57,998 bases of DNA from Candidatus Omnitrophota bacterium (GCA_037131245.1 JBAXRK010000013.1:1-57998); one strand, 5' to 3'; shown: positions 15,267 through 32,444, numbered from the stretch's first letter. The notes: generated by a model not told the origin, from the letters alone. Numbers and translations are program-made.

Positions 15267-16955
15267 TCAGGTGCTCACCCGGTTACGCCCTCCCTGTTTG
15301 GCAATGTACAGGGCGCGGTCCGCTTTTCCGATCAAGGACTCCTGGTCCGCCTGCTCTTTCCCGAATGCGGCAACACCCACGCTCACTGTCACGCCCAGAG
15401 ACATATTGTTATGCATCAACCCCATCCCCGCAACATTCAACCGTATCTTCTCGGCCACCCCGCACGCCACTTCCAGTGTGATATGCCTAAGCAAAATAAG
15501 CGCCTCATCGCCGCCGTACCTGGCCACTACGTCTTCGCCGCGAACAGAGGACCTGAGCACCGCGGCCACGTTTTTCAGGACCAGGTCACCGGCCTGATGG
15601 CCAAAACGATCATTGAGCTGTTTGAAATGGTCGATATCACAGATCAGCACGCAAAACCTTAAAGAAGGATCCTGCTCCGCCTTGCGGCATTCTTCATCCA
15701 GGACCTCTTTGAAAAAACGGATATTATAAAGCCCCGTCATCCCGTCCGTGGTCGCCATCGCCATAAGATTCTGCTTCTCGATCGACGCCCGGGTGGAATT
15801 AACGAACATAATAATAAAGTAGCCACCCAGCAACACGATCAACGGTAGCGAAGGGCTGATAATAACTCCATTGAGAAAAAAGATATAGCTCGCCGCCAGC
15901 ACCATGGTCACCATTAAGAGAAAAGCTCCTTCCCGGCCCGAGCGGCCAGAAAAGATCACCAGCGGAAGCAACAAAGCCAAGCCATAAATGATCAACGCCA
16001 CGACCCAAAAAGGCGGAACAGAAAGGAAATCCTGGCTGTCAATATTGCTTAAAGCGGTCGCAATAACGCCAATACCCGGATACGTCGCTTCCAGGGGCGT
16101 GATCTTATGGTCGTAAAGTCCCGCCGCCGTCACCGCGACCAAACAGATCCGCCCCTTAAAATCCGTCAGGTCGATCGCTGTTGGCCGTCCGGCCTGGCGA
16201 TCCACATAGGCCTGACGCAATTCCCTGAAGGAATAATGCCGGAACGTCTCCCGCCATTTGCCCTGCCAGTTAAGCATCATTTTATCGCCTTCCACCAGGG
16301 GGATCGCAATCTCCCTCTGGGCATTGCCCAGGAGCAACTGCCGCGGCGTGATGCTTTTGATCTCCATGCCCCATCGGTCACGGGCCATCTTCAGGACGAT
16401 ATGCTCATAAAACTTGCCGTTGATATAAAAAAAGAGCGGGATACGGCGCCATTTGCCATCACGGTCGGGAATAACAATCGCCGCCCCGGTTCCCTTGACC
16501 GCCTCAAACAAAACCGGGACCGGGTGGATCATGGTCCGCAAGCTGATCTCTCCCTGGGTAAAAATAAAAGGCAAATAGATATTACCCGCCCGGCGGATGA
16601 CATCAGCGAACGGCTTGTCGCCACCCTGATCATCCGGCACGGAAAAAAGATAATCATAAAAGATCTGCCCCGCCCCAAGGTCTTTGAGCAGCGCGCCCAT
16701 CTCGCGATAGTCGGATCTCGGCCAGGGCCAGCGGCCTGAATCAACCAGGTCCCGATCCGTGACCTCAACAATAATGATATCCTGCGTCACATGACTGCTG
16801 ACTTGAGTGGCCCGAAAACGATAATACAGATCCAGTCCCAGTGATTCCAGGCTCCAGAAAAAAGCGGTATGGGAAAGGAGTAGGCAAGCGGAGGCAAATA
16901 ACAGGGAAAGGCAGATACTGAAGTTGAGATCTTTACTGAGCTTTAACCAAGGCAT
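15267..16955 (-). CDS. CHASE2 sensor-domain diguanylate cyclase (GGDEF variant GGDEA)
   Basis: An N-terminal TM is followed by a periplasmic CHASE2-like region, TM segments and then the GGDEF domain (DGMTGLYNIRFF...DIDHFKQLNDRFGHQAGD...RYGGDEALILL). The start lies only 9 nt after the ACP stop. Confidence 0.8.
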   Translation of the reverse strand: MPWLKLSKDLNFSICLSLLFASACLLLSHTAFFWSLESLGLDLYYRFRATQVSSHVTQDIIIVEVTDRDLVDSGRWPWPRSDYREMGALLKDLGAGQIFYDYLFSVPDDQGGDKPFADVIRRAGNIYLPFIFTQGEISLRTMIHPVPVLFEAVKGTGAAIVIPDRDGKWRRIPLFFYINGKFYEHIVLKMARDRWGMEIKSITPRQLLLGNAQREIAIPLVEGDKMMLNWQGKWRETFRHYSFRELRQAYVDRQAGRPTAIDLTDFKGRICLVAVTAAGLYDHKITPLEATYPGIGVIATALSNIDSQDFLSVPPFWVVALIIYGLALLLPLVIFSGRSGREGAFLLMVTMVLAASYIFFLNGVIISPSLPLIVLLGGYFIIMFVNSTRASIEKQNLMAMATTDGMTGLYNIRFFKEVLDEECRKAEQDPSLRFCVLICDIDHFKQLNDRFGHQAGDLVLKNVAAVLRSSVRGEDVVARYGGDEALILLRHITLEVACGVAEKIRLNVAGMGLMHNNMSLGVTVSVGVAAFGKEQADQESLIGKADRALYIAKQGGRNRVST

Positions 16956-16964
16956 CGCTTAAGG

Positions 16965-17207
16965 TCACCCGCGGCGGCGTTGAATATAGTCGACCACATC
17001 CCTGACCGTCTTAACAGCCATGATATCACTATCCGGGATCTTAAGATAGAACTTTTCCTCCAAAGCGAAAGCCATCTCAATGGCCGCGAAAGAATCCATG
17101 TTAAGGTCCTCCGCCAGGCGGGCGTCGGGCGTGATCTTCTCTGGCGCGGCATCCAGTTTATCCGCCAGGATCGCTTTCACCTGCTGCTCGATATCTTGCG
17201 CGTTCAT
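16965..17207 (-). CDS. Acyl carrier protein
   Basis: The 80-aa protein has EDLNMDSFAAIEMAFALEEKF (a DSx phosphopantetheine-site pattern). Its ATG overlaps the ketosynthase stop (ATGA). Confidence 0.85.
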   Translation of the reverse strand: MNAQDIEQQVKAILADKLDAAPEKITPDARLAEDLNMDSFAAIEMAFALEEKFYLKIPDSDIMAVKTVRDVVDYIQRRRG

Positions 17208-18451
17208 CGCTCATCTCCTTGTTGAAAAACCAGGCAGGCATTGCAACCGCCAAACCCGAACGAATTAGACAGGACCGCCTTTAACGCGGCCCGGCGCGCT
17301 TCACCGGGAACATAATCCAGGTCGCAATCGGGATCCCGCTCCTTAAGATTGATCGTCGGCGGGATCAGGCCACGGTCCAAGGCCAGCGCGCAAACCAGCG
17401 CTTCGATCGCCCCCGCCGCCCCGATGCTGTGGCCGATCATCGATTTAGTGGACGACACCGGCACGCGCGCTTTCTCCCCGAACACCGTCTTGATCGCCCG
17501 TGTTTCAGCCTTGTCATTAGCCTGGGTTGCCGTGCCATGCGCATTGATATAATCAATATCCCCGGGCTTTATCCCCGCGTCGCTCAGAGCCGCCGCCATC
17601 GCCAGGGCGGCATCTTGCCCGCCGGGATCCGGCATCACGATATGATGCGCCCCTGAGTTCGCCCCATAACCGGTGACCTCGGCATAAACGCGGGCCTTCC
17701 TGCGGCGGGCATGTTCAAGCTCCTCCAGGATCAGGATGCCCGCCCCTTCCGACAGCACAAACCCGTCGCGCTCCCGGTCAAAAGGCCGCGAGGCTTCCTG
17801 AGGGCGGTCATTCCTTTTGGACAGGACCCGCAGCGCGCCGTAAGCCGCGAAAGTGATCGGCGTCAGCGGCGCTTCAACCCCGCCGGATACGCAGGCATCA
17901 AGCTCTCCGTACTGGATCTTGCGAAAAGCCTCCCCGATCGCGTGGGCGCCGGAAGCGCAAGCTGTTGAAATAACACTATTGAACCCGGTCAACCCGGACT
18001 CAATGGCAATGTGGCTGGCCACCGCGTTGGACGTGATCCGGGGCACCGCCAGCGGATTGATCCGGCCGGGGCCTTTATCCAGGGCCGCGCGCATCTGCTC
18101 CTCGTGAAATTGAATGCCGCCGAGGCCCGAACCGATGATGACGCCGATCCTCGCGCGGTCTTCGCGCGCAAGGTCCAGCGCGCTATTGGCCAAGGCCATC
18201 TTGACCGACGCCAGGCCCAGGTGAACGTACCGGTCGGTGCGCTTAAGGACTTCCGCCGGCATATATTGCCCCGGGTCAAAACCCGTAACCTCGCCCGCGA
18301 TCCTGGTCTCAAGCCCGGCCACATCAAAAGATAAAAGGTTCTTCACGCCGGAGATCCCGCGGGCATTGTTCTCCCAGAAAAGCTCCAGGCCGATGCCATT
18401 AGGCGCCACAACCCCCAAGCCCGTAATAACAACCCGCTTTCTATCCTTCAC
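17204..18451 (-). CDS. Beta-ketoacyl-ACP synthase, FabF/KAS II-like (415 aa, GTG start)
   Basis: The Cys-His-His triad is present: ISTACASGAHAIG (active Cys), NAHGTATQAND and KSMIGHSIGAAG. GTG at 18451 gives VKDRKRVVITGLGVV. The longer track ORF (to 18637) overlaps the SDR gene and is discounted. Confidence 0.85.
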   Translation of the reverse strand: MKDRKRVVITGLGVVAPNGIGLELFWENNARGISGVKNLLSFDVAGLETRIAGEVTGFDPGQYMPAEVLKRTDRYVHLGLASVKMALANSALDLAREDRARIGVIIGSGLGGIQFHEEQMRAALDKGPGRINPLAVPRITSNAVASHIAIESGLTGFNSVISTACASGAHAIGEAFRKIQYGELDACVSGGVEAPLTPITFAAYGALRVLSKRNDRPQEASRPFDRERDGFVLSEGAGILILEELEHARRRKARVYAEVTGYGANSGAHHIVMPDPGGQDAALAMAAALSDAGIKPGDIDYINAHGTATQANDKAETRAIKTVFGEKARVPVSSTKSMIGHSIGAAGAIEALVCALALDRGLIPPTINLKERDPDCDLDYVPGEARRAALKAVLSNSFGFGGCNACLVFQQGDER

Positions 18452-19232
18452 GTTTGGCCACCTGCTTCTTGCTCTGCACGTAAGAGACGACGGCCAGCAC
18501 GAAGGCCTGGGGCAAAAACCGCACACATGCCACCATGACCCTGTTTCCGAAACCATGGACGGCCAGGAACTGGCCTGAACGAAGCGCCTTGTATCCGTAC
18601 TCAGCCACTTCTCTGGAGGAAGGCATCCGACGGTCATTCAAGAGTATATCCGACGTAAAAGCCGCCTGCTGAAAACCCGACGCAGTCGGCCCGGGGCAAA
18701 GGCAGGTCACCGTGACCCCGCTGCCTTTAAGTTCGCTGGCGAGCGCCCTGGAAAAAGACAACACAAACGCTTTTGTGGCAAAATAAACCGACATCAACGG
18801 GCCGGCCTGAAAAGCGGCGGTAGATGCAACATTGAGGATACGGCCGCTACGACGCTGCACCATCCCCGGCAGGAACATCCTCGTCAGTAGCGTTAACGCG
18901 GTAATATTGAGCTCGACCATCGCCTCCTGCCGGCAGGGATCAGCATCAACAAAAGGGCCCCAGTCACCAAAACCGGCATTGTTGACCAAGACATCGATCA
19001 AGAGCCCCCGCTGGCCAACCCACTCATACAATTGACGGCTGCTGCCCTTTACCGAAAGATCGATCGCGATCACATGGACACTGACCTGAAAACGGCCGCG
19101 CAAGTCGGCGGCAATGGCCTCGAGTTTCTCCCGGCTGCGCGCGGCTAAAACAAGATCATAATGGCCGCGGGCCAGGCACACGGCCAGCTCATAGCCGATA
19201 CCGCCGGAAGCGCCAGTTACCAGCGCGGTCAT
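18441..19232 (-). CDS. SDR-family oxidoreductase (classical, 263 aa)
   Basis: It has ALVTGASGGIGYE, LVNNAGF and Y..TK (VYFATKAF). The stop overlaps the ketosynthase start and the ATG overlaps the methyltransferase stop. Confidence 0.85.
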   Translation of the reverse strand: MTALVTGASGGIGYELAVCLARGHYDLVLAARSREKLEAIAADLRGRFQVSVHVIAIDLSVKGSSRQLYEWVGQRGLLIDVLVNNAGFGDWGPFVDADPCRQEAMVELNITALTLLTRMFLPGMVQRRSGRILNVASTAAFQAGPLMSVYFATKAFVLSFSRALASELKGSGVTVTCLCPGPTASGFQQAAFTSDILLNDRRMPSSREVAEYGYKALRSGQFLAVHGFGNRVMVACVRFLPQAFVLAVVSYVQSKKQVAKREG

Positions 19233-19981
19233 TTGGCCCCCGACTGATACGCGACGCCACCAAGCATAAAACTTTTTCCGTGCACATCCCTGAAACCGGC
19301 GCCGCTCATCATAGCCATGATCTCATTCTCCACTGGAAAATAACGGCTCGACCGGCTGAGATACTCAAAAGAATTAAACTCGTGACGATGAAAGACCGCC
19401 CGGCCCAGAAAAGGCATGAGACGGTCGAAATAAACATGATGCAGCCAGCGCGGCAAACCCGCTTTCGGTTTACCAAGATCAAGTGTCGTAAACACGCCGC
19501 CGGGTTTAAGGACACGGTGCATTTCTTTGATTCCCGCCGGGATATCACCGAGGTTCCGCAAGCCGAACCCCATCGCGATCGCGTCAAACGTATGCTCTTC
19601 AAAAGGCAAAGCCAGCGCGCTGGCCTGATAGAAGCTGATATCGTGAATGTTCGATCGCCGCGCCCGTTCTTTGGCTACCCGCAACATTTCTCCCGACATA
19701 TCCACCGCGTCCAGATGAAGGCCGCGGCATTGCCGGGTCATCTCGATAAAAAGGTCGCCGCTGCCCGTGCAGATATCAAGCACCCGCATGCCCGGTTTCA
19801 GATTCAGGCTGCTCACAGCCGCCTGCTTGTACCGCTGCTGCTGCCCAAGGGAAATGACCACGTTGAGCCGGTCATATTTGGGCGCCAACCCGTCAAAAAA
19901 AGCCCGGTTGGACTCCTCCCAGGAGCCGGCCTTAAAATACCGGTCGAACCCGACCGCTTTTACCGCCGCCGCGTCTTTCAT
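19229..19981 (-). CDS. Class I SAM-dependent methyltransferase, UbiE/MenG-like
   Basis: It has VLDICTGSGDL (motif I) and LKPGGVFTTLD, with UbiE-type length. The ATG at 19981 shares one base with the PKS stop. Confidence 0.8.
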   Translation of the reverse strand: MKDAAAVKAVGFDRYFKAGSWEESNRAFFDGLAPKYDRLNVVISLGQQQRYKQAAVSSLNLKPGMRVLDICTGSGDLFIEMTRQCRGLHLDAVDMSGEMLRVAKERARRSNIHDISFYQASALALPFEEHTFDAIAMGFGLRNLGDIPAGIKEMHRVLKPGGVFTTLDLGKPKAGLPRWLHHVYFDRLMPFLGRAVFHRHEFNSFEYLSRSSRYFPVENEIMAMMSGAGFRDVHGKSFMLGGVAYQSGAK

Positions 19982-21021
19982 CAACTTTTCTCCGTCCAGC
20001 GCAATAAAGCCCCATTAACGCTCGTCCCCGCGCCATAACTGACCATTAAAGCTGGCGTCCCATCAGAGAAAACCTGCGTCTCGGCCAAATGTTTAAGAAT
20101 ATACATCACGCTCGGCGATGACATGTTGCCGTACTCCGCCAGGATATGCCGGCTGACCTTAAGAGCTTCCGGGGCCAGGCCCAGCGTTTCTTCAATCCGA
20201 TCGAGGATGAGCCGTCCGCCCGGATGAAAGACCAATACCTCCGGAAGCCGAGCGATCGTCATCTCTGTCAATAAAGCTTTCACGCCAGCCGACACAAATT
20301 GCGGGACCGCTTTGCCCAGGACATTCTGCAAGCGGGCATTGACCGTGCGAAAGCGCAGCTGGTCTCGGGTCTCGGGAAAAAGCAAACAGCCATGCTGTAT
20401 CATCTGCCAGCCAGGCTTCTCGTCGCAGGTCAGCACGCAAGCCGCCGCGCCATCACCAAAAATAGAATTTGAAAGCAGCAGATCCACCGATTCCGCGTGA
20501 ACGAACGTAGCGGAGCATATCTCCACCGCGATAAAAAGCAGATTACCTTTCTTGGCGGCCAGCAAAAACTGCTCGGCCACCCGCAAGCCGGGCACCGCCG
20601 CGCCGCACCCGTGGCCGACAATATCAAGGATGAAAACGTCTTTCCGGACGCCAAGCGCTTCCCCGACATAAGAAGTAAGGCCGGGGCAAAGATATCCGGT
20701 GCACGTCACGATCACCAACCCGTCGACCTGATCCGGCCGCAAGCCCGCCGCGGCCAGGCTTTTGCGCCCCGCCTCTACCGCCAGCGCGGTGGCCTGTGTT
20801 TCAAAACGGGCGGTCGCCGCGTCGGCATCTTCGGTAAGAATCCGCTCCATGCGGTCGATCGCGAAGGTGCGCGAACGCACGCCGTCATCCGACATGAACC
20901 GTTCGTAATATTTTTTACTCCTGACGGAAAAGTCCTGCTTCATGATCAAATCGATGATCGCGCTCTGGTCCATGCGCAAGGGAGGATTAGCCGTACTGAT
21001 GCTCGTGATCCGGGGGGTCAT
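19981..21021 (-). CDS. Type III polyketide synthase (chalcone/stilbene synthase superfamily)
   Basis: The Cys-His-Asn catalytic set is in the expected order: VGHGCGAAVPG (Cys), VFHPGGRLILD (His) and EYGNMSSPSV (Asn). At 346 aa it matches bacterial RppA/Srs/Bps-type size. Confidence 0.85.
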   Translation of the reverse strand: MTPRITSISTANPPLRMDQSAIIDLIMKQDFSVRSKKYYERFMSDDGVRSRTFAIDRMERILTEDADAATARFETQATALAVEAGRKSLAAAGLRPDQVDGLVIVTCTGYLCPGLTSYVGEALGVRKDVFILDIVGHGCGAAVPGLRVAEQFLLAAKKGNLLFIAVEICSATFVHAESVDLLLSNSIFGDGAAACVLTCDEKPGWQMIQHGCLLFPETRDQLRFRTVNARLQNVLGKAVPQFVSAGVKALLTEMTIARLPEVLVFHPGGRLILDRIEETLGLAPEALKVSRHILAEYGNMSSPSVMYILKHLAETQVFSDGTPALMVSYGAGTSVNGALLRWTEKS

Positions 21022-21614
21022 TGATCGCCCCGCGTGAACACCATCGCGTATTTCACGTTTACCAGGTCCGCCACGCGGATCATCATCAGGACAGTGGGCG
21101 GATGCAGGTCATAATCCTTTAAATGAATATCAAAAGCGCCTTCACACGTGAGCGTACCACCCGCCAGACGGCCGGTGGCTGTAAGCGTCACCGGGTGGGT
21201 GATGTTATGGATCGTCATGGTCCCGGGGATCAGGATCGTCCCCTCCCCTTTTGCGGCCAGCGCCGACAGGTCGGGACTACCGAAAGCAAAATGAATATCC
21301 TTGTATTTCGGCTCATTGAACATGCGGTACATATTAACGTCCCGGCCCTTATTGTCCGTGGTCAGGCCAGCCACCGCCAGGTCCACCGCGCCGGCTGAAG
21401 CCGCCCCGGCTGTAGCCGCGCCGGCTGAAGATGCTCCCCCGGCAAAGGACCCCGACATGGTCTGCGCCTTGCCGTGAACATCATGCAATGTCGTGCGCAC
21501 AAAGAAGGTAAGCGTGCTTTTCTCCGGAGCCAGGCGCCACACGTCAGCCGCCATCGCGCGGGGCGCTATAAGGACCGTCACTACCAATAAGAAAATCTTG
21601 AATATCCTGTTCAT
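21018..21614 (-). CDS. YceI-like (polyisoprenoid/lipid-binding) periplasmic protein
   Basis: From the ATG at 21614 (SD GGAGG) it has the signal peptide MNRIFKIFLLVVTVLIAPRAMA. YceI-type motifs follow: STLTFFVRTTLHDVHG, TTDNKGRDVNM and GTMTIHNITHPVTL. An Ala/Gly/Ser-rich insert is present. Confidence 0.7.
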   Translation of the reverse strand: MNRIFKIFLLVVTVLIAPRAMAADVWRLAPEKSTLTFFVRTTLHDVHGKAQTMSGSFAGGASSAGAATAGAASAGAVDLAVAGLTTDNKGRDVNMYRMFNEPKYKDIHFAFGSPDLSALAAKGEGTILIPGTMTIHNITHPVTLTATGRLAGGTLTCEGAFDIHLKDYDLHPPTVLMMIRVADLVNVKYAMVFTRGDQ

Positions 21615-21637
21615 CCTACCTCCAGCCCTTCTTTTAG

Positions 21638-22867
21638 CTAACGCCAGAACGCGCCGCTCTCCATCTCCTTGACCAGGACCTCCTGGTCCTTCAGGATCAA
21701 TTGCCGCGAAGCGTCGCGGACCGTAATGGCTTTTTTCGCGATCCCGTGGCAATACTGGCAATCCCCGCACACACGGTTGCGGCAGCCATTCATGCCGAGG
21801 ATCGGCTCCAGGAACCCGTCAAGAGCCCGATTATCGATCGTGACGGGCGGCTCCACCTCGGGCACTGAAATAAACCCCCGCTTGCGGCTGAGGTTCAGCA
21901 AGCGCCGGATCGCGCCGATCCGCAAAGGTGCCGAATGCCTTAACCAGGTCAGCACGCTCCCTGCCCGGTTCCCCAGCGCATTAAGGGAACGGTCGGGCTT
22001 GACCGTGTGACCGAAATCCTGGATCAAGTCCAGTAAGTTGCCCTCATAATGCCGCCCATGGTACGCCTTGAGCCGGCGCAGCAAAACCTCCGTCGGAAGA
22101 TTGCGGCCGGATAATTTGAAATTATCGTAACCAAGCCTTTCGTAATGGGCCAGGTCTTCCGGTCGTATCCAGTCCGCCATCAAGAAACGCTCCGGCTCCC
22201 GCAATTTCTGCGCGGTACAATGCAGATAACAATAATCCGGCAGGATACCCTGTGTTTTACTGCCGCGCCTTGATCCTGACGCGAGGACGTTCATATGATA
22301 CGGCGATAATGAACAACCATAATCGCAATTGTTATTCACCAGAAGCTGTAGCGGGATCTTGACCGACCGGCGGATATCTTCCAGGATATGAAATTCCCGA
22401 TTGACCAACAGCGAATCGAGGACAACCTCATCGGCCCCCATGTCTTCCCACTGGCGCGCTTTGCGGGCGTCACCGACCTGCGCGAAAACACTGATCTTCA
22501 CCCACGCTCCCGGATAGCGGCTCTTGAGGAACCTGAGCAAATAGGGCGTCGCCACCGTGAACCGCGTGATGCCCATGGCCCATAAACGGTCCACCAACCC
22601 CGCCAAAGCCCTCTGCCCCGACCGCGTGTATTCCATATTGTCGGACGCCGAAGCATTAAGCAGATAATTAAAAGCCATGCCCTGTTGCCGGCACAGGTCC
22701 GCGTGCCGGCGCAGGTCGGCGAACGACAAGGAAGGCAGGAGCTGGGACAAGCGCCCGCCGCCAACCGCGTCAGACTGAAGCTTGCCGTAAACTTCGCTCA
22801 CCCCGTGACCGGCCATACCCTCGATCAGGCAAGGGTCAAAATTTGTTGGAACAGAAAATATCGCCAT
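21638..22867 (-). CDS. U32-like (collagenase/UbiU-UbiV superfamily) TIM-barrel protein with C-terminal Cys cluster
   Basis: The layout resembles U32-family proteins: FSVPTNFD...EVYGKL...GGGR...FNYLLNA...LLVNNNCDYGCSLSPYH...DYCYLHC. The extra C-terminal cluster is CRNRVCGDCQYC. The call is by recollection of the family, not by HMM. Confidence 0.5.
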   Translation of the reverse strand: MAIFSVPTNFDPCLIEGMAGHGVSEVYGKLQSDAVGGGRLSQLLPSLSFADLRRHADLCRQQGMAFNYLLNASASDNMEYTRSGQRALAGLVDRLWAMGITRFTVATPYLLRFLKSRYPGAWVKISVFAQVGDARKARQWEDMGADEVVLDSLLVNREFHILEDIRRSVKIPLQLLVNNNCDYGCSLSPYHMNVLASGSRRGSKTQGILPDYCYLHCTAQKLREPERFLMADWIRPEDLAHYERLGYDNFKLSGRNLPTEVLLRRLKAYHGRHYEGNLLDLIQDFGHTVKPDRSLNALGNRAGSVLTWLRHSAPLRIGAIRRLLNLSRKRGFISVPEVEPPVTIDNRALDGFLEPILGMNGCRNRVCGDCQYCHGIAKKAITVRDASRQLILKDQEVLVKEMESGAFWR

Positions 22868-22889
22868 CAACGCCTCTCTCGCGCTACAT

Positions 22890-24242
22890 TCAAATATTCA
22901 TCGTCCGGCGCGCCATACCGATCGCCTCCGACCAGGCCTGGTCGGACGTATGCACGGAATCCACAATGTCCTTGATCGCCGCTACGAAGCCGTCGATATG
23001 TTCCGTGGTAGCGACCAGCGGAGGTGAAGCTTTGAGCACCATAAAATCATTGCCGCAGATCTGGGTAATAAAACCCTTGTCACGGAACAAGCGCAAGACC
23101 AGCATCTGCCCGAACATCCCCGGATGAATGGCTTTAAATGTTTCAAAAGCCACCTTAAGCTTCAGCGACCTCGGCGCCCGGAACTTGATCCCCGACATCA
23201 TCCCGATCCCGCGCACTTCCTGGAACATCTCATACCCCGACAGGGCCGCCTGGAGCTTGTCGCGCAATTCCCGGCCCATCGCCGTTCCACGCTCACCGAG
23301 CTTTTCCCCTGCCATCACGTCAAGCGACGCCAGCGCGGCCCGCATGGCAAGAGAATTCTCACTGAATGTCGATGTGTGGATCATCGCGCTCTTGAGGGAC
23401 TTGAAAACAGAGTCGCAAACTTTCTCCGTCATAAGTAGAGCGCCCACCGGCACCAGGCCGCCACTCAGCGCTTTAGCCATCACCACCATGTCTGGCTCAA
23501 CACCATAGTGATGGGCTGCCAGGAACGGGCCCGTGCGGTACATGCCCGTCTGTACTTCATCAAGAACAAGTAATGTTCCGCTGCGGCGGCACAAACGCTC
23601 CGCCTCGCGTAAATAATCGTTCGCCGGCAGGACGATCCCCGCTTCCGACTGGATCGGCTCCACAATGAACGCCGCGAACTTCTTGGTGGCCAGTTTTTTA
23701 TCCAAAGCTGCCAGGTCATTGAACGGGATAGCGGTGGTATCCGGCAGCATGGGACCGAACCCGTCACTCCAGAAAGACCCGCCCATCAGGGAAAGCGCGC
23801 CACAAGTGAGCCCATGAAAAGCTCCGTCGCAGTAGAGCATGCCCGTACGGCCGGTATGCATACGAGAAAATTTAATAGCCGCCTCCACGCCTTCACTGCC
23901 GGAACTACCGAACGCGACACGAGCCAGGCGTCCGCCAGCCAGACGGCACAAGCGCTCCGCCAGCACTCCGGCCAGTTGCGGCACGTGATTCTGCAGCATC
24001 GAAGGGCCATTGCTATCAAGCTCGGCCTTAAGCGCGGCAATGATCGCCGGATGATTATGCCCCATATTGTAAACGCAATAGCCCGATAAGAAATCAAGGA
24101 TCCGCCGGCCGTCCACCGTGGTCAATTCCACCCCGAGGCAGTGGCGGTACGCCACGTTCATCTCCAGCAAGTCGAGCAAACGCACCCATTGCGGATTAAC
24201 ATGATCCGCGTACTGCTGGGCAAATGGCTGTTCACTTTTCAT
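22890..24242 (-). CDS. Class III (ornithine/GABA/putrescine-type) PLP-dependent aminotransferase
   Basis: It has NMGHNHPAIIAAL, GSEGVEAAIKFSR, LVLDEVQTGMYRTG and MAKALSGG (PLP Lys). Confidence 0.85.
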   Translation of the reverse strand: MKSEQPFAQQYADHVNPQWVRLLDLLEMNVAYRHCLGVELTTVDGRRILDFLSGYCVYNMGHNHPAIIAALKAELDSNGPSMLQNHVPQLAGVLAERLCRLAGGRLARVAFGSSGSEGVEAAIKFSRMHTGRTGMLYCDGAFHGLTCGALSLMGGSFWSDGFGPMLPDTTAIPFNDLAALDKKLATKKFAAFIVEPIQSEAGIVLPANDYLREAERLCRRSGTLLVLDEVQTGMYRTGPFLAAHHYGVEPDMVVMAKALSGGLVPVGALLMTEKVCDSVFKSLKSAMIHTSTFSENSLAMRAALASLDVMAGEKLGERGTAMGRELRDKLQAALSGYEMFQEVRGIGMMSGIKFRAPRSLKLKVAFETFKAIHPGMFGQMLVLRLFRDKGFITQICGNDFMVLKASPPLVATTEHIDGFVAAIKDIVDSVHTSDQAWSEAIGMARRTMNI

Positions 24243-24303
24243 CTTTCTCCTTTATGGACACACGCATCCCCGGCACGACACACGACATGACCGATGATGC
24301 TGA

Positions 24304-25284
24304 TTATTTGATCTCGAGAATGACCTTCAGGGATCCCTTGGCCCCAACGACAATATTGAACGCTTCCTGAATATCCTTTAGCGGCAGCGCGTGCGTAATA
24401 AGCGTCCGCACATTAACCTTGCCACTGCTGATGAGCGCCAGCGATTCTGCCAGATCATCCGGCGCCGCCCCGTAAGAAGACGTCACCGTCAGTTCTTTCC
24501 TCCAAAAATCCGGTATCGGCAGCGGTATGTCACGGTTCGGGATCGCGAAAAGCAAGATGGTCCCTTTTTTATCGACACAACGGAACGCTTGTTCGACAGC
24601 GCTAAAAGCACCGGTGCACACAATAACCTTATCCGCGGGGGCATCGATCGGTGCCGAAGCCTGAAGCACTTCATCCGCGCCGGCTTCACGCGCTTTCTGC
24701 AAGCGGTACGCGTCAATATCCGTCGCGATGACTCGGGCCCCCTTCAGCTTGGCCAGCATGATATTCATCAGGCCGGAAACGCCACAACCAAGAATAAGGA
24801 CAGTCTGCCCCGCCCGCACATCGATCAACCGCAAACCCCGCACGCCGCACGCCAGCGGCTCGATCATGGACCCTTCCGCGTAAGACACATGATCCGGCAG
24901 GACATAAACACCGCGCTCAACATTGATCGCCGGAACGCGGATGAATTCGCTGTATCCACCCGGATCATAATTGCCCTGATGCAGTGTATCGCAGGCCGTA
25001 TGATGGCCGGCACGGCAGTACTTGCAATCGTCGCAGGGCACATGATGGCTGACGAATACCCGCTGGCCGGCCTTATACGCCGGTGACTTCGATTCAACAA
25101 TATCGCCGCTGATCTCATGGCCCAGGATGCGGGGGCCTTTCTTCACGCGATACCACTCCATCACGTCCGTCCCGCAAATGCCGCTGGCACGCGTCTTCAC
25201 CAGGATCTCACCGGGGCCGATCACGGGAACAGGCAACTCTTCAAGACGGATATCTTTATTGTTATAGTACCGGGCGGCGATCAT
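24304..25284 (-). CDS. Zn-dependent medium-chain dehydrogenase (threonine/sorbitol dehydrogenase-like)
   Basis: It has ASGICGTDVMEW, GHEISG, the structural-Zn Cys cluster CDDCKYCRAGHHTAC and the Rossmann segment LILGCGVSG. The ATG overlaps the aldolase stop (ATGA). Confidence 0.85.
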   Translation of the reverse strand: MIAARYYNNKDIRLEELPVPVIGPGEILVKTRASGICGTDVMEWYRVKKGPRILGHEISGDIVESKSPAYKAGQRVFVSHHVPCDDCKYCRAGHHTACDTLHQGNYDPGGYSEFIRVPAINVERGVYVLPDHVSYAEGSMIEPLACGVRGLRLIDVRAGQTVLILGCGVSGLMNIMLAKLKGARVIATDIDAYRLQKAREAGADEVLQASAPIDAPADKVIVCTGAFSAVEQAFRCVDKKGTILLFAIPNRDIPLPIPDFWRKELTVTSSYGAAPDDLAESLALISSGKVNVRTLITHALPLKDIQEAFNIVVGAKGSLKVILEIK

Positions 25285-26060
25285 GAGGCTTTCAAGATCT
25301 CCCGGGCCTGCTGCAGCGACACATTGTCATGCACGATCGCCTTGAGAGCGCGTGCCATGGCCACCGGACGGGGGCTCTGCCAGACATTGCGGCCCAGGTT
25401 AAGCCCCACCGCGCCCTTCTGCATGCCGTCATGAACAAATTCCAGGACCCCTTCCTCGGTCTCACACTTGGGGCCGCCAGCCATAATGACCGGCACGGGG
25501 CAACCCTGCACTACCTTATCAAAATCCTTGTCGCACCAGTACGTTTTAACAACCCTCGCGCCAAGCTCAGCCGCGATGCGGCAACACAACCCCAGATAAC
25601 GGGCATCGCGTTTTTCCATCTCGCGCCCCACCGCAGTCACCGCCATCACGGGGATCCCGTAAGGCTCGCACATGTTCACCAGCGTGGCCAGGTTCTTGAG
25701 CGTTTCTTTTTCGTAATCACTGCCAATAAAAACAGAAACGCCGACAGCGGAAACATTAAGCCGAAGGATCTCATCAATAGATGTTGTCACTTCCTCATTG
25801 GCCAGGTCCTTGCCGACCATACTGGTACAGCCCGACACTCGCAAGACGATCGGCTTGCTGCCTACCGGATCGATCACCGAGCGCAACACGCCACGCGTAC
25901 AGAATAAAGCATCCACATAAGGCAATAACGGCTTGATCGTCTCAGCCGGCCGTTCCAGGCCTTTGGTCGGCCCCTGAAAATAACCGTGGTCGATCGGCAT
26001 AAAAAAACATTTTCCGCCCGGCATCAACTGACTTAAGCGATTCTTCATTCCCCAACTCAT
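25281..26060 (-). CDS. DhnA/LsrF/AroA'-type class I aldolase family protein
   Basis: It has FFMPIDHGYFQGP, RVVKTYW (Schiff-base Lys region), PVIMAGGPK and LNLGRNVWQ. The ATG at 26060 follows GGAGG, whereas the track start at 26066 is a TTG. Confidence 0.7.
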   Translation of the reverse strand: MSWGMKNRLSQLMPGGKCFFMPIDHGYFQGPTKGLERPAETIKPLLPYVDALFCTRGVLRSVIDPVGSKPIVLRVSGCTSMVGKDLANEEVTTSIDEILRLNVSAVGVSVFIGSDYEKETLKNLATLVNMCEPYGIPVMAVTAVGREMEKRDARYLGLCCRIAAELGARVVKTYWCDKDFDKVVQGCPVPVIMAGGPKCETEEGVLEFVHDGMQKGAVGLNLGRNVWQSPRPVAMARALKAIVHDNVSLQQAREILKAS

Positions 26061-26146
26061 GCGCAAGCCTCCGTAATATGGTTGAACAATATCATCCTGA
26101 AGATTAAACCAGGATTAAAAGAAGATTAGATTTTATTAACGGCCGC

Positions 26147-26608
26147 TCACCAATATAACTTTTTAAACCGGGCTGAATACCGACGTATCCAGACCTTTGA
26201 CGCTTCCTCCAGCGACACCTGCTTGCCCGATTGTAAGCTGAGCAGGTCACGAAATTCGGCGATCAGGTAGATCTGCTCGATCATTTTCACCTTGAACGCC
26301 TCCTGGACCCGCATGAAACTGACCGCGATATCATACAACCGCGTCTCGGCATTGAGCATGCAACGCACCACGCGCGCCCTGACATTGAACATTTTATCCT
26401 CAAAGGGCATGTTCAAAACGATACGGGCGCCTTTTTTAAGCATGTTTTTAGAAGAAAAAAGCAGGCCGCCCAGGCTAACATTGCGCGTCCGGGAACGCTC
26501 GCCGGCCGGCATGGCCGGTTCGGCCTTCTCACCGGGAGAGAGCATCTTGTAGGCCAGCGGCATACACAATGGATGGCGGATAAACTTACGGCATTCGATG
26601 ACTTTCAT
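26147..26608 (-). CDS. PilZ-domain (c-di-GMP-binding) protein
   Basis: From the ATG at 26608 it has RKFIRHP (RxxxR) followed by TRNVSLGGLLF (the N/DxSxxG motif). Confidence 0.7.
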   Translation of the reverse strand: MKVIECRKFIRHPLCMPLAYKMLSPGEKAEPAMPAGERSRTRNVSLGGLLFSSKNMLKKGARIVLNMPFEDKMFNVRARVVRCMLNAETRLYDIAVSFMRVQEAFKVKMIEQIYLIAEFRDLLSLQSGKQVSLEEASKVWIRRYSARFKKLYW

Positions 26609-26621
26609 ACGGCACCCTCTT

Positions 26622-28064
26622 TTAGGTTTTCCGGATGAACCGCCACCACAACGCGACATACTGCGACAGCTCCCGGCGCCAGGAAACGAACGGATATAGC
26701 CTGAACTTCATATTATAACCGTACCAGCAGTAAAAAACCATTGTATAAAAAGCGCCGAACGGTAAACGGCACAGGAAGCCCACGCCGCCCCGTAAAATAG
26801 GGAACCGGACAACGACACCGAAAAGCTTGTGAAAATTGCTGATCCACCTGACCCTCTCCGGTGAAAAGCCGAAAGCCGTGCTCCGCTTATTAGTCTCAAG
26901 AAGAAGCGTTTCTTTCCCCAGCAAGCCCTGCTCCCGGGCATAAACCTCGATCGCGGTGCCCGGATACGGATAAAGGATCGACGACCAGGCGAAGGCCGGC
27001 TTAAGGCGGATATTAAAATCCAGCGTTTCAAGGTCCATCGCCTCGCTATCGGCGACCGGCAGACCGATCAGGTTTTGGGTAATGATCTTCACCTTGTGCT
27101 TATGCAAGATTGCCACGCCCCGCTCGATCTCGGCGTTGGTCAATTCGCGCTTAAGGACGGCATTCGCCTTCTCTTCATTACCGCATTCAATACCCATCCA
27201 GGCCGAATCCAGGCCCGCGCCCTTTAACGCGGCAATGATCTCCTCCTTGATAAAGTCCGCCCGGAGGTTAACGCTCAGCGGCAAGCCGACCTGCTCTTTA
27301 TACAGCGCCGCAAAACGGAAGAACCAGGGCCCGGGCTTGGCCAGGAAATTGTCATCATCGATCCAGACAACGTTGAGCGGATACTGCCGCTTAACCTCGA
27401 CGATCTCGCGGACAATGCTCTCGGGTGAACGCGCGCGGACCACCGGGCCTTTACCCTGATAAATATCGTTATAGCGGCTGTTAAAACAATAGGTGCATTT
27501 CTGGGGGCAGCCGCGCGCGGCGAAGAACATCTTGCGGCCCTCGTTCCGTAACGCCGGATCGGCCTCATACATGACGGCCCGGTCGGCGAAAGGCAATGTG
27601 TCAAGGTCGCGAATAAGCGGTGCCAGCGGATTCTTGACCACCTCTGCTCCGTGACGACACCAAAAATTAGGGGAATGACGGTAGTCACCGCCCTCGGCGA
27701 CCCGCCGGCAAAATTCGGGGAACGCTTCATCGGCTTCACCCACGCAGATCGCGTCTACGCCCTCTTCCTGGATCATATCCGGGAAGAACGTCGTGTGCGG
27801 GCCGCCAAAAACCGCCAAGAACGAAATTTCCTTCTTCAGCAGCCGGTTAAACGCCAGCATGCGTCCATGCTCGCCGGTCATCACGCTGTAAGCCACGACA
27901 CCCGGGGCAAAAGACCTGGCGAGCGCAACGGTTCCCTGCTCTCCATGCGTATCTAAAAGTACCAGCCGGGTTTCATGCCCGCGCTCTTTAAGCGCCGCGC
28001 TCAAACACATGATCCCCATGCGTTCATGCATGGTCGATTCTTTAACAATAAAAAGGATCTTCAT
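26622..28064 (-). CDS. B12-binding-domain radical SAM enzyme (class B)
   Basis: An N-terminal cobalamin-binding-like Rossmann segment (KILFIV...MGIMCLSAALKERGHE...) is followed by ARGCPQKCTYCFN (CxxxCxxC). Confidence 0.8.
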   Translation of the reverse strand: MKILFIVKESTMHERMGIMCLSAALKERGHETRLVLLDTHGEQGTVALARSFAPGVVAYSVMTGEHGRMLAFNRLLKKEISFLAVFGGPHTTFFPDMIQEEGVDAICVGEADEAFPEFCRRVAEGGDYRHSPNFWCRHGAEVVKNPLAPLIRDLDTLPFADRAVMYEADPALRNEGRKMFFAARGCPQKCTYCFNSRYNDIYQGKGPVVRARSPESIVREIVEVKRQYPLNVVWIDDDNFLAKPGPWFFRFAALYKEQVGLPLSVNLRADFIKEEIIAALKGAGLDSAWMGIECGNEEKANAVLKRELTNAEIERGVAILHKHKVKIITQNLIGLPVADSEAMDLETLDFNIRLKPAFAWSSILYPYPGTAIEVYAREQGLLGKETLLLETNKRSTAFGFSPERVRWISNFHKLFGVVVRFPILRGGVGFLCRLPFGAFYTMVFYCWYGYNMKFRLYPFVSWRRELSQYVALWWRFIRKT

Positions 28065-29722
28065 TATTTTTCCGGCTTCGGCTCCTCGAACACGGTCAGC
28101 GTGAACTCCAGCGGCACCAACCCCATGCTGGCCTGCTCCTGACGGACCGGGCCGGTGCTTAAGCGTGCCGGGTCAAAACCCGTCCCGGCAATAAGATCAC
28201 TGACCGCCTTGGCCCGCGCGGCGGCCAGCGCCTCCAGGGCCGGCTTATCGACCGCGGCACCTTCGATCAGCTGACGCTTGATCTCGGCAACAACCTTGTC
28301 ATCATCGTAAGAGCCCTCTTTAAGCTTATACTTCTTGGTGATATCCCACAACTCCCGGATGCCGACCCGGCGCTGATAAAGCATCTGGTAGATCCAGCTG
28401 TCAGAGCGCGTCGAATTCTTGCGCAGCTCGGCGAAGTCTTTCTCCAGGGTTACCTGGTTGATGGCTTTCCAGTCAAGGTCGGGGTCATACCCGCCGTCGA
28501 CCTCAAGCTTCAATTTCGGATGGTCTTTAAGGCTCTGCAACAAAGACTGGATCTTTTTCTTCTCCGCGTCGGTAATATCCGTCTTCCCCGGCTGGAACCG
28601 GACATAGCCCAGCTCATCGGTGCCCGTGTCCCCGGCCAGGAACGCGAACGGCTTGGTCACCAGTCCCGTGAAGAAATTCGTAACGACCTGGCCGACCAGC
28701 GACCAGTAATGGAATTCCGGCTTGCTCATGTCGCCGGTCACCGGCAGGGAGATCTTGATACGGCCCTGCGGGTCTTCGAGCAGCGCCACCACCAGGCCGA
28801 ACGGCAGATGAAGAGCGTCCTTGCTTGCCACGCTCTGGCCGAAGGCAAACCGCTGAATAAGGATCTTGTGCGCCGCCGTCAGTTTGTTGCCGCTGATGCG
28901 GTAATCGGTCTTGAACTCCAGCACGCCGTCCTTTAGATCCCGGCCGGCATATTTCCCGACATAGGGGCTTAGGATATCGAGCGCCAACCCATCAAGAGAA
29001 AAACTGGTTTCCAGGTCGATGGGCGTTGCGAACGGCTTGATATTGATCTCGGAGCCGATCGTTCCCTTACCTCCCAGTTTTGCCTGGAAAATAATATTGG
29101 CCGCTCCATCAGGTTTGGTGGAAAACCCGGTGACCTTAATAGCGATATCGGTAAGGGCGACAGAAAAATTGGGATGAATGGTACGGTCAAGAAGATCGAC
29201 GCGGCTGTTCGCGAGCGTCAGGCTGTCAATGATGACCAAAGGCAGAGGTTGTGCCGGGGGCGCCGTCTCTTTGGAGGCGGAGCCTTTCGCAACGGTCGGG
29301 GTAGCGGCAGCGGGAACCGCGGCCGGCGCAGGCATGACCGGCGCGGGCGCCAGCTCCATTAAATTGACTTTCCCGCCATCGAGCAGGACCACGTTGACCT
29401 TGAGACCCTCAAGCGCCACCGACTCAATGCGGTATATTTTCTTGAACAGCGCGAGGAAACTCGCGTCAACGCTCAGCCGGTCAAAGCCCGCCATCAACTG
29501 CCCGTCCTTATCAAGGACCTTAAAGCCGCCCAGCGTCAACCGCCATAAAAAGGGATTGAACGACGCCGACGCCAGCTTGACCGGATGCTTCAGGACTTTT
29601 GTCCCCTGGTCTTCGGCAGCCCACTTGATCACCATAGGCAAAACGACGGCCGCGATAAAAAGGTAGAACACAACAATGCCGGCGACGACTTTAAGCGATA
29701 CCAATCCTATCTTTTTTAACAT
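28064..29722 (-). CDS. Membrane-anchored AsmA-like / DUF748-type protein
   Basis: From the ATG at 29722 there is one N-terminal TM (VAGIVVFYLFIAAVVLPMVI). A long beta-rich periplasmic region then resembles AsmA/DUF748 proteins (LSVDASFLALFKKIYRIESVALEGLKVNVVLLDGGKVNL). Confidence 0.55.
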   Translation of the reverse strand: MLKKIGLVSLKVVAGIVVFYLFIAAVVLPMVIKWAAEDQGTKVLKHPVKLASASFNPFLWRLTLGGFKVLDKDGQLMAGFDRLSVDASFLALFKKIYRIESVALEGLKVNVVLLDGGKVNLMELAPAPVMPAPAAVPAAATPTVAKGSASKETAPPAQPLPLVIIDSLTLANSRVDLLDRTIHPNFSVALTDIAIKVTGFSTKPDGAANIIFQAKLGGKGTIGSEINIKPFATPIDLETSFSLDGLALDILSPYVGKYAGRDLKDGVLEFKTDYRISGNKLTAAHKILIQRFAFGQSVASKDALHLPFGLVVALLEDPQGRIKISLPVTGDMSKPEFHYWSLVGQVVTNFFTGLVTKPFAFLAGDTGTDELGYVRFQPGKTDITDAEKKKIQSLLQSLKDHPKLKLEVDGGYDPDLDWKAINQVTLEKDFAELRKNSTRSDSWIYQMLYQRRVGIRELWDITKKYKLKEGSYDDDKVVAEIKRQLIEGAAVDKPALEALAAARAKAVSDLIAGTGFDPARLSTGPVRQEQASMGLVPLEFTLTVFEEPKPEK

Positions 29723-30336
29723 CAGATCCCCTCTCGCTGCGTTCCTTTTGTGCCCGCCAGAACTTTTTCCATCCGCTGGTCCGGGATAAGCCACATCAGC
29801 GCCACCAGTACATAAAGAGTATCCGCGCTCCACTGGTTAACGAACGACAAAACGACCGCTGCCGCGTAGCTGGCCAGGGAGAGCTTCCCCTTCCAATCGC
29901 GGCCCAGGGTCTGCGCCAGAAGGGATCCCTGCCCGTGATCCTCAACGATACATCCCTGCAGGATAAAATACGCCACCGCGGACATCAACAGCACCGCGCC
30001 ATAGATCGCCGTCGGCCAAGCCGCACCGTGATTCTCTCCCAACCAGCCGGTCGCGAACGGAACAAGGGAAAGCCAGAAAAGTAAATGGGCATTCGCCCAC
30101 ATGATCTTGCTGTTGAGGCGCCGAGCGGTATGTAGCAAATGATGATGATTGTTCCAATAGATCGCGATATAAACGAAACTGAGGGCATAACTGAGGAATT
30201 GCTCGGCCAGCGGCCGCAACGACGCCAGGTCGGTCCCGCGCGGGACCTTTAACTCCAGCACCATGATGGTGATAATGATCGCCAGGACCCCGTCGCTGAA
30301 CGATTCAAGGCGGGTTTTGGGAATATGCGCTTCCAT
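29722..30336 (-). CDS. TMEM175-family (DUF1211) potassium channel
   Basis: It has RLESFSDGVLAIIITIMVLEL (the FSDGV signature) and six predicted TM helices. I prefer the ATG at 30336 over the TTG at 30363. Confidence 0.75.
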   Translation of the reverse strand: MEAHIPKTRLESFSDGVLAIIITIMVLELKVPRGTDLASLRPLAEQFLSYALSFVYIAIYWNNHHHLLHTARRLNSKIMWANAHLLFWLSLVPFATGWLGENHGAAWPTAIYGAVLLMSAVAYFILQGCIVEDHGQGSLLAQTLGRDWKGKLSLASYAAAVVLSFVNQWSADTLYVLVALMWLIPDQRMEKVLAGTKGTQREGI

Positions 30337-30359
30337 CGACAAAAGAAATATCCTCGCGG

Positions 30360-31061
30360 TCAAGCCAGATCGAATAGCAGAAATTCAGCAGGTTCAGCGG
30401 CCATCACCATGATCTCAGCGGCAGCTTCCAGCGATGCCCCATCGCCCGCCCTTAAAGAATGTTCTCCTATTCTAACACAACCTTTCACGATCTGCACCCA
30501 AAGACCGCGGCCGGGTTTGATCGCGTAAGGGACCTTCTGCCCCTTGGTGAGAACACCGCGGAAGATCAGCACATCCTGATGAAAATCGACCAGCCCGCCC
30601 TTGCCCGGCGGCGCGCCGATCAGAAACAGTGGAACCTCCGGATCAGGTTCAGGCAAAGCGACTTCCTTGTACGAAGGCACCAACCCGTTCTTGTCCGGCT
30701 GTATCCAGATCTGGTACAGATGGACCGGTTGCTTATCGGACGCGTTAAACTCGCTGTGCGTGATCCCGCGCCCTGCTGTGATCTTCTGCACTTCCCCGGC
30801 CTTGATCGTTGAGGCATGGCCCATGCTGTCCTTGTGCGCCAGCGCGCCTTCGACCACATAGGTGAAGATCTCCATGTTCTGATGCGGATGCGTGCCAAAC
30901 CCTTCACCTGGCGTCACACGGTCATCATTGATCACGCGCAAAGAACGAAAACCCATATGGCGATGATCGTAATAATCCGCAAATGAAAACGTATGCCAGG
31001 TGTCGAGCCAACCATGATCGGCATGCCCACGCTCCCGCGCCGGCCTGATCGTAATAGACAT
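30360..31061 (-). CDS. Pirin-family cupin protein
   Basis: It has GFGTHPHQNMEIFTYVVEGALAHKDSMG (the pirin metal-binding His motif), at 233 aa. Confidence 0.85.
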   Translation of the reverse strand: MSITIRPARERGHADHGWLDTWHTFSFADYYDHRHMGFRSLRVINDDRVTPGEGFGTHPHQNMEIFTYVVEGALAHKDSMGHASTIKAGEVQKITAGRGITHSEFNASDKQPVHLYQIWIQPDKNGLVPSYKEVALPEPDPEVPLFLIGAPPGKGGLVDFHQDVLIFRGVLTKGQKVPYAIKPGRGLWVQIVKGCVRIGEHSLRAGDGASLEAAAEIMVMAAEPAEFLLFDLA

Positions 31062-32435: not shown

Positions 32436-32444
32436 AACAACCTT

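Follow-up and report, generated by a model that had tools for sequence, protein, structure and literature searches.

A U32-family Fe–S protein in the hydroxylase position of a type III polyketide synthase operon from Candidatus Omnitrophota

Introduction

A contig of a Candidatus Omnitrophota bacterium (GCA_037131245.1, JBAXRK010000013.1) carries sixteen closely spaced genes on the minus strand between positions 15267 and 31061, with a type III polyketide synthase (T3PKS) among them. The whole stretch analysed (1-57998; 57,998 nucleotides) is referred to as the window. An initial annotation, made from the sequence alone, had read the sixteen genes as one supercluster for the synthesis, tailoring, envelope delivery and control of a single phenolic lipid. 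The locus raises two questions: which of the genes belong with the T3PKS, and which of them takes the place of the ring hydroxylase. The T3PKS-centred biosynthetic operon proves to be genuine; we take the functional unit to be the eight or nine genes from an aminotransferase to an acyl carrier protein (ACP), perhaps with a diguanylate cyclase (DGC) (15267/16965-24242), and not all sixteen. The most informative gene is one that had been listed as an accessory among many, encoding a U32-family Fe–S protein, which occupies the hydroxylase slot.

In the srsABC and pkqABC operons, a methylase and a hydroxylase turn a resorcinol into an alkylquinone (PMC9927152). The tricistronic mtr-fdo-t3pks operon of planctomycetes, related to the cyanobacterial hidABC, has been shown experimentally to make C-methylated alkylresorcinols (PMC10896814). 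UbiU and UbiV are U32 proteins that bind a 4Fe–4S cluster through four conserved cysteines and are needed for three O2-independent hydroxylations of ubiquinone biosynthesis; most U32 families share the four-cysteine motif, prephenate is the oxygen donor, and TrhP and RlhA act in RNA hydroxylation (PMC6747719, PMC10990095, PMC5727448). Most U32 subfamilies are uncharacterised, the assigned roles being only ubiquinone, tRNA and rRNA hydroxylation (PMC10990095).

The hydroxylase position

Close relatives of the operon were collected as seven DNA loci (two from GTDB metagenome-assembled genomes (MAGs) and five metagenome contigs), in which the T3PKS is 57–68% identical to that of the window; an eighth locus was used as a gene list. 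Labels found on relatives are Planctomycetales, 'bacterium', Omnitrophota and Brocadiae. The window's own contig is 192 kb long, and there is an identical Logan contig of 12.5 kb. A monooxygenase of the FAD_binding_3 family stands beside the T3PKS in all seven, and the set of hydroxylase, T3PKS and UbiE-type methyltransferase (MT) is kept in these and in the P0022 locus. The whole 58-kb window contains no homologue of this flavin adenine dinucleotide (FAD) monooxygenase, and the position is taken by the U32 gene.

The U32 protein has 409 residues. Homologues in its subfamily (about 410 residues, 37–74% identical) form 418 representative clusters among 1.84 billion at E ≤ 1e-30. C181, C185, C213 and C217, together with C362, C367, C370 and C373, are invariant in 29 homologues, and C181 and C185 align with C193 and C197 of UbiV. 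The AlphaFold2 model (pLDDT 88) has its best fold match in the PDB with Mk0906 (5D88; TM 0.74), a U32 TIM-barrel, and the sequence profile matches the same entry (E 3e-13). Only 5D88 matched, and the PDB copy searched holds no solved UbiU or UbiV structure. The protein matches no NCBIfam model, and no gene for an SCP2 protein (UbiT) is found in the window. These comparisons place the protein in a new subfamily and not among the orthologues of UbiU or UbiV.

The surroundings of the subfamily were analysed in 80 metagenome loci with flanks of 8–10 kb, beyond which partners fall outside view, and T3PKS neighbours were counted by tblastn. A T3PKS lies within 4 kb of the U32 gene in 38 of the 80, which are the best-scoring subset of more than 527 matches to the U32 alignment and not a random sample. 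Where at least 2 kb is present on both flanks, the count is 16 of 24, and no other neighbour family comes close to T3PKS in frequency. As the partner T3PKSs fall into at least three distant lineages (mutual identity only 27–29%), the linkage is not that of one cluster copied around. At least 15 metagenome loci have the order U32-MT-T3PKS, with only a few bases between the genes and without a FAD monooxygenase; the MT of these loci (about 240 residues) is homologous to the one encoded in MT-FAD monooxygenase-T3PKS operons from the GTDB set (which includes Gimesia, Planctomyces and other planctomycetes). The exchange is thus seen in two architectures, one hid-like with a small class-I MT and one of the window type with a UbiE-like MT, from which we conclude that the flavoprotein and U32 substitute for each other. 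U32 is also found fused to a UbiE-like MT (669–672 residues): in the JGI contig L085 (1651-3660), the 669-residue fusion P0234 lies directly downstream of the T3PKS, and a second fusion, likewise next after a T3PKS, is present in L094 (3979-5997). None of the 82 T3PKS loci fetched with the T3PKS as query (L001–L083, without the window's own twin L078) contains a U32 gene.

We tentatively assign U32 as an O2-independent ring hydroxylase, at somewhat under an even chance. With the same reservation, the subfamily would be a single-subunit, prephenate-type O2-independent hydroxylase dedicated to T3PKS phenolic lipids, and the anaerobic counterpart of the SrsC/PkqC/HidB flavoproteins. At most T3PKS loci, U32 and the FAD monooxygenase are mutually exclusive (the flavoprotein in all seven relatives against U32 in the window, and no flavoprotein in any of the U32-MT-T3PKS loci), which is the pattern expected of analogous enzymes, and all U32 members of known role take part in hydroxylations (PMC10990095). 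Both points argue against U32 acting on the T3PKS product through some other Fe–S-dependent redox step (candidates would be the interconversion of quinol and quinone, a dehydroxylation, or the decarboxylation of an alkylresorcylic acid). This alternative is unlikely in our judgement, although what the repeated linkage of U32, T3PKS and MT shows is that the pathway is shared, not which chemistry is involved, and the unusual cysteine spacing and additional C-terminal Cys4 module would suit it. Also in its favour, the two proteins coexist, instead of one replacing the other, in L084 (7631-9995), L107 and L120, where U32 is followed directly by the FAD_binding_3 monooxygenase. L084, an NCBI MAG contig, has the order YceI-MMPL-T3PKS-U32-FAD monooxygenase-MT-PEMT-like MT. 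The same pair is probably present in L106 and L133, where the stop-to-stop open reading frames (ORFs) overlap; no T3PKS lies within 7 kb in these two loci, and the pair may act there on other substrates too.

Genes conserved with the T3PKS

The common content of the relatives is a two-component system, YceI, the FAD_binding_3 monooxygenase, T3PKS, UbiE-type MT and a short-chain dehydrogenase/reductase (SDR), to which a HAD phosphatase, a second MT and a class-III aminotransferase are usually added. The MT is located directly downstream of the T3PKS in all seven and is 56–61% identical to that of the window. The SDR (51–60% identical) is present in six and YceI in five; YceI is also found in L084, L090, L092, L094 and L099. 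An aminotransferase 64–67% identical to the window's is encoded in four of the seven, and the P0022 locus has an Aminotran_3 gene as well. The genes for the β-ketoacyl-ACP synthase II (KAS II), ACP, DGC, Zn-dehydrogenase, aldolase, PilZ protein, B12-binding radical S-adenosylmethionine (SAM) enzyme, DUF748 protein, TMEM175 channel and pirin are absent from all seven. The same ten are absent from 40 U32-linked T3PKS loci, apart from two weak matches to the radical SAM enzyme.

As these ten genes do not recur in the relatives, the supercluster has to be trimmed to the core block. The core had been proposed as T3PKS-MT-SDR-KAS II-ACP; its first three members are conserved, and KAS II and ACP are not. 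Co-occurrence does extend beyond the PKS-MT pair, to the SDR, YceI, the hydroxylase and the aminotransferase. The aminotransferase had been grouped with the Zn-dehydrogenase and the aldolase as a trio, which was a mis-grouping: it belongs with the PKS, because the relatives keep it without the other two.

Core enzymes

The T3PKS scores above the 27-bit cutoff with both Pfam domains (PF00195, 47.8 bits; PF02797, 67.2 bits). Its best match in the PDB is Pks11 of Mycobacterium tuberculosis (E 7e-32, about 30% identity), and in the alignment with Pks11 the catalytic triad is formed by Cys139 (GHGCG), His266 (FHPGG) and Asn299 (YGNMSS). A Phe is aligned to a Trp of Pks11, with a four-residue gap alongside; this Trp may be equivalent to the Trp of resorcinol-forming enzymes (PMC9927152). 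The clade contains about 28 sequence clusters at 53–68% identity. A dihydroxyphenylglycine (DpgA) pathway was ruled out, as the DpgA score is 144 bits against a cutoff of 425 and the DpgB–D genes are absent.

The MT has the SAM-binding motif DxCxGxG. It passes only the broad subfamily model TIGR01934 and stays below all UbiE/MenG equivalog cutoffs (e.g. NF001244, 199.6 against 216 bits); it is a probable ring C-methylase. The SDR is closest in NCBIfam to mycolate reductase (171 bits, under the cutoff of that model) and scores 95 bits with the FabG model, for which the cutoff is 298; by these scores, it is not FabG. For the aminotransferase, the best NCBIfam match is the PigE aminotransferase domain (405 bits, under its cutoff), and PigE (4PPM, E 7e-80) is the sole PDB match at E<1e-60. 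The N-terminus of YceI, read from the sequence, is signal-like (MNRIFKIFLLVVTVLIAPRAMA/AD).

These enzymes could instead be read as making up a bpsAB-like route to an alkylpyrone, or another pathway without a quinone product, in which the MT would be an O-methylase or the UbiE of the cell, and U32 and YceI would serve isoprenoid quinones as mere neighbours. YceI proteins are known binders of isoprenoid quinones, the MT passes the generic UbiE/MenG model, and Pks11, of all solved T3PKSs the closest, bears the name α-pyrone synthase; T3PKS-MT alkylpyrone clusters moreover occur in anaerobes (PMC9827899). We regard this reading as improbable. It does not account for the fixed place of the MT downstream of the T3PKS in all relatives, for the MT scores below every specific UbiE/MenG cutoff, or for a U32 protein whose T3PKS partners come from three unrelated lineages and which also occurs fused to an MT beside a T3PKS. 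The window also contains no prenyltransferase and no other ubi or men gene.

KAS II has the motifs TACASG, AHGT and GHS (Cys/His/His). Its gene overlaps that of the SDR by 11 nt, to which it is translationally coupled, and that of the ACP by 4 nt. The ACP has its phosphopantetheine DS motif at residue 38. Both the FabF and the ACP models are passed, and no fabH, fabD or fabG is found nearby. The gene order, KAS then ACP, is the reverse of the usual acpP-fabF. Only one other locus (L121, 527-3862) pairs a KAS with this U32 subfamily; its gene order is FabF-like KAS (46% identical to that of the window), UbiE-like MT, U32, and there is no T3PKS. The DGC has GGDEA in place of the GGDEF motif and keeps the RxxD I-site. 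With a gap of 9 nt to the ACP gene, it is probably co-transcribed with the core; none of the related loci has a homologue.

Proposed pathway

We propose an srsABC/pkqABC-like route from alkylresorcinol to alkylquinone with an O2-independent, UbiU/V-like hydroxylation, a reading from sequence for which the chances seem to us about even. The T3PKS would extend a fatty-acyl starter, possibly delivered by the adjacent KAS II and ACP, with malonyl units and cyclise it to an alkylresorcinol-type phenolic lipid. The UbiE-family MT would C-methylate the ring. The U32 protein, in place of the FAD monooxygenase, would then add a ring hydroxyl without O2, converting the resorcinol to a hydroquinone/quinone; by analogy with UbiU/UbiV, prephenate would be predicted to be the oxygen donor. 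The SDR and the PigE-like aminotransferase may modify a carbonyl on the side chain, the product or the starter, one option being a β-keto group, as in the logic of KS-ACP-aminotransferase systems. The secreted YceI would bind the lipid outside the cytoplasm.

A number of observations weigh against this proposal. U32 is only 18–19% identical to UbiU and UbiV, and its cysteines are spaced CX3CX27CX3C against the common CX6CX15CX3/4C (PMC6747719). It is a single gene and not a UbiU/UbiV-like pair, and it carries the extra C-terminal four-cysteine region. A third of the well-flanked U32 loci have no T3PKS, and the contexts in Geothermobacter and P0125 are unrelated; to this are added the selected nature of the 80 loci and the length of their flanks. 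In vitro hydroxylation has so far been demonstrated for no U32 enzyme (PMC10990095). As the T3PKS is only about 30% identical to characterised enzymes, resorcinol or pyrone cyclisation cannot be called from its sequence. KAS II and ACP are confined to this locus and score as an ordinary FabF and ACP, and could be housekeeping genes. Finally, all of the evidence is genomic, and the case rests on gene neighbourhood.

If the proposal is right, oxygen-independent hydroxylation would extend to polyketide natural products, and bacteria in anoxic habitats could make alkyl-benzoquinone ('polyketide quinone') lipids without O2, possibly as non-isoprenoid electron carriers. The FAD-dependent hydroxylase of known polyketide-quinone biosynthesis is taken to be O2-dependent. 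Reports credit polyketide quinones with supporting respiration under low oxygen (PMC9927152, PMC10896814). A U32 route would address the apparent tension between such a respiratory role and biosynthesis by an FAD-dependent hydroxylase. U32-MT-T3PKS would be a compact three-gene system whose substrate should be more readily available than polyprenyl phenols, making the chemistry easier to test. Rules for T3PKS genome mining should count 'peptidase U32' genes as tailoring enzymes. The relevant construct also shrinks from 16 kb to about 7.3 kb (16965-24242).

The gene array and its surroundings

All sixteen minus-strand ORFs were confirmed at the coordinates in Table 1, and their domain names match the Pfam and NCBIfam results.

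Table 1. Genes of the array and neighbouring features in the window
Product	Position	Strand	Basis or remark
CHASE2-GGDEF DGC	15267-16955	-	Pfam CHASE2 + GGDEF
ACP	16965-17207	-	PP-binding 57 bits; NF002148 80 bits, cutoff 71
FabF-type KAS II	17204-18451	-	TIGR03150 551 bits, cutoff 494
SDR	18441-19232	-	adh_short 160 bits
UbiE/COQ5-family SAM MT	19229-19981	-	PF01209 182 bits; TIGR01934 196 bits, cutoff 158
T3PKS	19981-21021	-	Pfam Chal_sti_synt_N/C, FAE1_CUT1_RppA
Secreted YceI-like lipid/isoprenoid-binding protein	21018-21614	-	Pfam YceI 62 bits
U32-family Fe–S protein	21638-22867	-	Peptidase_U32 PF01136 31.2 bits, cutoff 22.4
Class-III (PigE-like) aminotransferase, opening the tight core block	22890-24242	-	Aminotran_3 291 bits
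Zn-dehydrogenase	24304-25284	-	ADH_N/ADH_zinc_N
DeoC/LsrF-type aldolase/thiolase	25281-26060	-	NF006081 352 bits, cutoff 297
PilZ	26147-26611/26659	-	Pfam
B12-binding radical SAM enzyme	26622-28064	-	Pfam
DUF748/AsmA-like protein	28064-~29725	-	Pfam
TMEM175-family channel	29722-30336/30363	-	Pfam
Pirin	30360-31061	-	Pfam
HTH_37/HigA-like antitoxin	31173-31520	-	immediately upstream of pirin
Gp49/HigB-like toxin	31495-31863	-	immediately upstream of pirin
AcrB-type RND transporter	36020-39154	-	5 kb upstream of pirin
2-oxoacid:ferredoxin oxidoreductase, alpha/beta pair	12180-14890	+	convergent with array end
507-residue protein, split or duplicated SDR domain	10186-11709	-	few kb downstream of array
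Second radical SAM protein, 544 residues, without B12 domain	6299-7933	-	few kb downstream of array

Junctions were recomputed with the likeliest start codons (in nucleotides; negative values are overlaps). The upstream block has pirin/TMEM175 23, TMEM175/DUF748 -4, DUF748/radical SAM -1 and radical SAM/PilZ 10, and in the middle block the aldolase and Zn-dehydrogenase genes overlap by 4. From the aminotransferase to the DGC, every junction is an overlap or at most 23 nt: aminotransferase/U32 22, U32/YceI 23, YceI/T3PKS -4, T3PKS/MT -1, MT/SDR -4, SDR/KAS -11, KAS/ACP -4 and ACP/DGC 9. The two largest gaps, 86 nt (PilZ/aldolase) and 61 nt (Zn-dehydrogenase/aminotransferase), divide the array into three tight blocks. 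Genes, domains and junctions are thus as the initial annotation described them, and the co-directional array is real. It is not special: the minus-strand run is wider than the sixteen genes (14932-34632, 24 ORFs), and 52 of the 63 crude ORFs in the window (about 83%) belong to the minus strand and follow one another at short distances. Since strand and spacing are the local norm, they are by themselves no proof of a single pathway. The GC content is uniform and unremarkable across the region.

All sixteen genes might still make, tailor, export and regulate one lipid, with DUF748 as the conduit to the outer membrane and PilZ and the DGC providing cyclic di-GMP (c-di-GMP) control. The array is indeed unbroken, with gaps of at most 86 nt and no convincing intrinsic terminator between the blocks; terminator-like matches in 14500-32500 are mostly intragenic. 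PilZ has both c-di-GMP-binding motifs intact (RKFIR for RxxxR and NVSLGG for NxSxxG) and stands in one array with a DGC, and radical SAM genes occur near T3PKSs elsewhere (B12-type in L003, L004 and L006, a different type in L090). The failure of the ten genes to recur in the seven relatives or, bar the two weak matches, in the 40 U32-linked loci speaks against such a pathway. So do the window-wide strand bias and tight spacing, the placement of orthologue-level radical SAM homologues in glycan clusters, and the continuation of the same-strand run upstream into an unrelated HigB/HigA-like toxin–antitoxin pair, a DCC1-like oxidoreductase, another Zn-dehydrogenase and TauE. We consider a sixteen-gene pathway very unlikely and retain the shorter unit around the T3PKS.

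The only strong minus-strand promoter-like sites in 14500-32500 are at 31907-31880 (sigma-70-like, 11/12 match, with an extended -10 TG) and 32014-31987, both upstream of the toxin–antitoxin pair. Promoter-like matches in this interval are no commoner than in shuffles, and the scan is unusable for operon limits. Neither the Rfam nor the tRNA scan of the window returned anything, and no c-di-GMP or cobalamin riboswitch is evident.

The aldolase has its best PDB match in LsrF (E 4e-76). An archaeal-type ADH synthase that would feed shikimate/prephenate was considered for this gene and rejected, since it is closer to LsrF (259 against 144 bits, PDB) and passes the LsrF cutoff and not that of ADH synthase. 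None of 168 comparison loci has a homologue of the aldolase, and the Zn-dehydrogenase finds only sporadic weak matches among them; membership of this pair in the pathway is not supported by these comparisons.

Homologues of the B12-binding radical SAM enzyme (50–57% identity) come from two unrelated lineages and sit among glycosyltransferases, nucleoside diphosphate-sugar epimerases, nucleotidyltransferases and GHMP kinases; T3PKS, PilZ and DUF748 genes are absent from their surroundings in these glycan clusters. In L168 (1148-9443) and L170 (8001-12348), clusters of the polysaccharide type, with glycosyltransferases, epimerases, a GHMP kinase and a flippase, contain two or three paralogous members of the family. 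This context suggests sugar modification as the usual role of the family, and PilZ, the radical SAM enzyme and DUF748 (26147-29725) are probably a separate envelope/glycan-related unit. A ladderane-type lipid cluster was rejected on the score of the radical SAM enzyme (68 bits against a cutoff of 360, TIGR04072) and on the glycan context of its homologues. In the Nitrospirota, Thermodesulfovibrionales and Planctomycetota MAGs L003 (~8613), L004 (~549) and L006 (~2313), a B12-radical-SAM-like gene, 22–23% identical to that of the window, immediately precedes the gene of a T3PKS that shares 36% identity with that of the window, and could encode another oxygen-independent tailoring enzyme. TMEM175 and pirin have no homologue in any related locus, and we found no evidence for a link between them and the PKS.

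RND or MMPL transporters adjoin the T3PKS in the related loci L083, L084, L090, L092, L099 and P0022, and a role in lipid export is possible for the AcrB-type transporter of the window. The 2-oxoacid:ferredoxin oxidoreductase pair hints at an anaerobic-type metabolism, which would be consistent with an O2-independent hydroxylase. Further downstream lie the protein with the split or duplicated SDR domain and the second radical SAM protein.

Comparison with known systems

Literature comparison revealed no characterised cluster of this composition, as the initial annotation had supposed. No paper turned up in full-text searches that connects U32 proteins with type III PKSs or their products, or YceI with type III PKSs, beyond incidental co-mentions.

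In Azotobacter vinelandii (arsABCD) and Myxococcus xanthus (ftp, cited in PMC10896814), a T3PKS reportedly has a dedicated fatty-acyl supply via a carrier protein. The supply genes of the window would differ from these in being a discrete FabF-type KAS II and ACP, and not a type I fatty acid synthase (ArsA/D) or a fatty acyl-AMP ligase (FAAL) with ACP, and the pair is not conserved in relatives. PigE of prodigiosin biosynthesis transaminates a lipidic keto-aldehyde. The window aminotransferase is far closer to the transaminase domain of PigE (4PPM) than to other solved class-III enzymes, but lacks the N-terminal half (450 against about 850 amino acids), stays below the PigE cutoff and has no prodigiosin context. 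In bpsAB-type and Negativicutes alkylpyrone clusters, the MT is an ICMT-type membrane enzyme and not of the UbiE type. These clusters resemble the window in the T3PKS-MT pairing and in their occurrence in anaerobes, but are reported as T3PKS-MT pairs without a hydroxylase and yield pyrones (PMC9827899).

The UbiU-UbiV-UbiT system of Escherichia coli and other Proteobacteria also combines U32 proteins carrying the four-cysteine motif with a UbiE-type methylase and a lipid-binding accessory on a lipidic phenol (PMC6747719, PMC10990095). In the window, there is one U32 gene, the accessory is a secreted YceI in place of the cytoplasmic SCP2 protein UbiT, and the substrate would be a polyketide and not a prenylated 4-hydroxybenzoate.

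The closest likeness is with srsABC (Streptomyces griseus), pkqABC (Mycobacterium smegmatis, Streptomyces sp. MNU77), hidABC (cyanobacteria) and mtr-fdo-t3pks (planctomycetes), in all of which a T3PKS is tightly linked to an MT and a ring-oxidising enzyme. The srsABC/pkqABC/hidABC-type operons produce alkylresorcinols that are converted to methylated alkylquinones or hierridins (PMC9927152, PMC10896814). The window differs in having U32 instead of a flavin monooxygenase, in its UbiE/COQ5-type MT, and in the addition of a conserved SDR, PigE-like aminotransferase and secreted YceI together with the locus-specific KAS II and ACP. As it holds no FAD oxidoreductase, we do not file it as a member of this group and propose it as a functional equivalent that would use U32. 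On what is so far genomic support only, the window appears to be a new variation on a known operon type, an alkylresorcinol/alkylquinone-type T3PKS operon in which a U32 protein would stand in for the flavoprotein.

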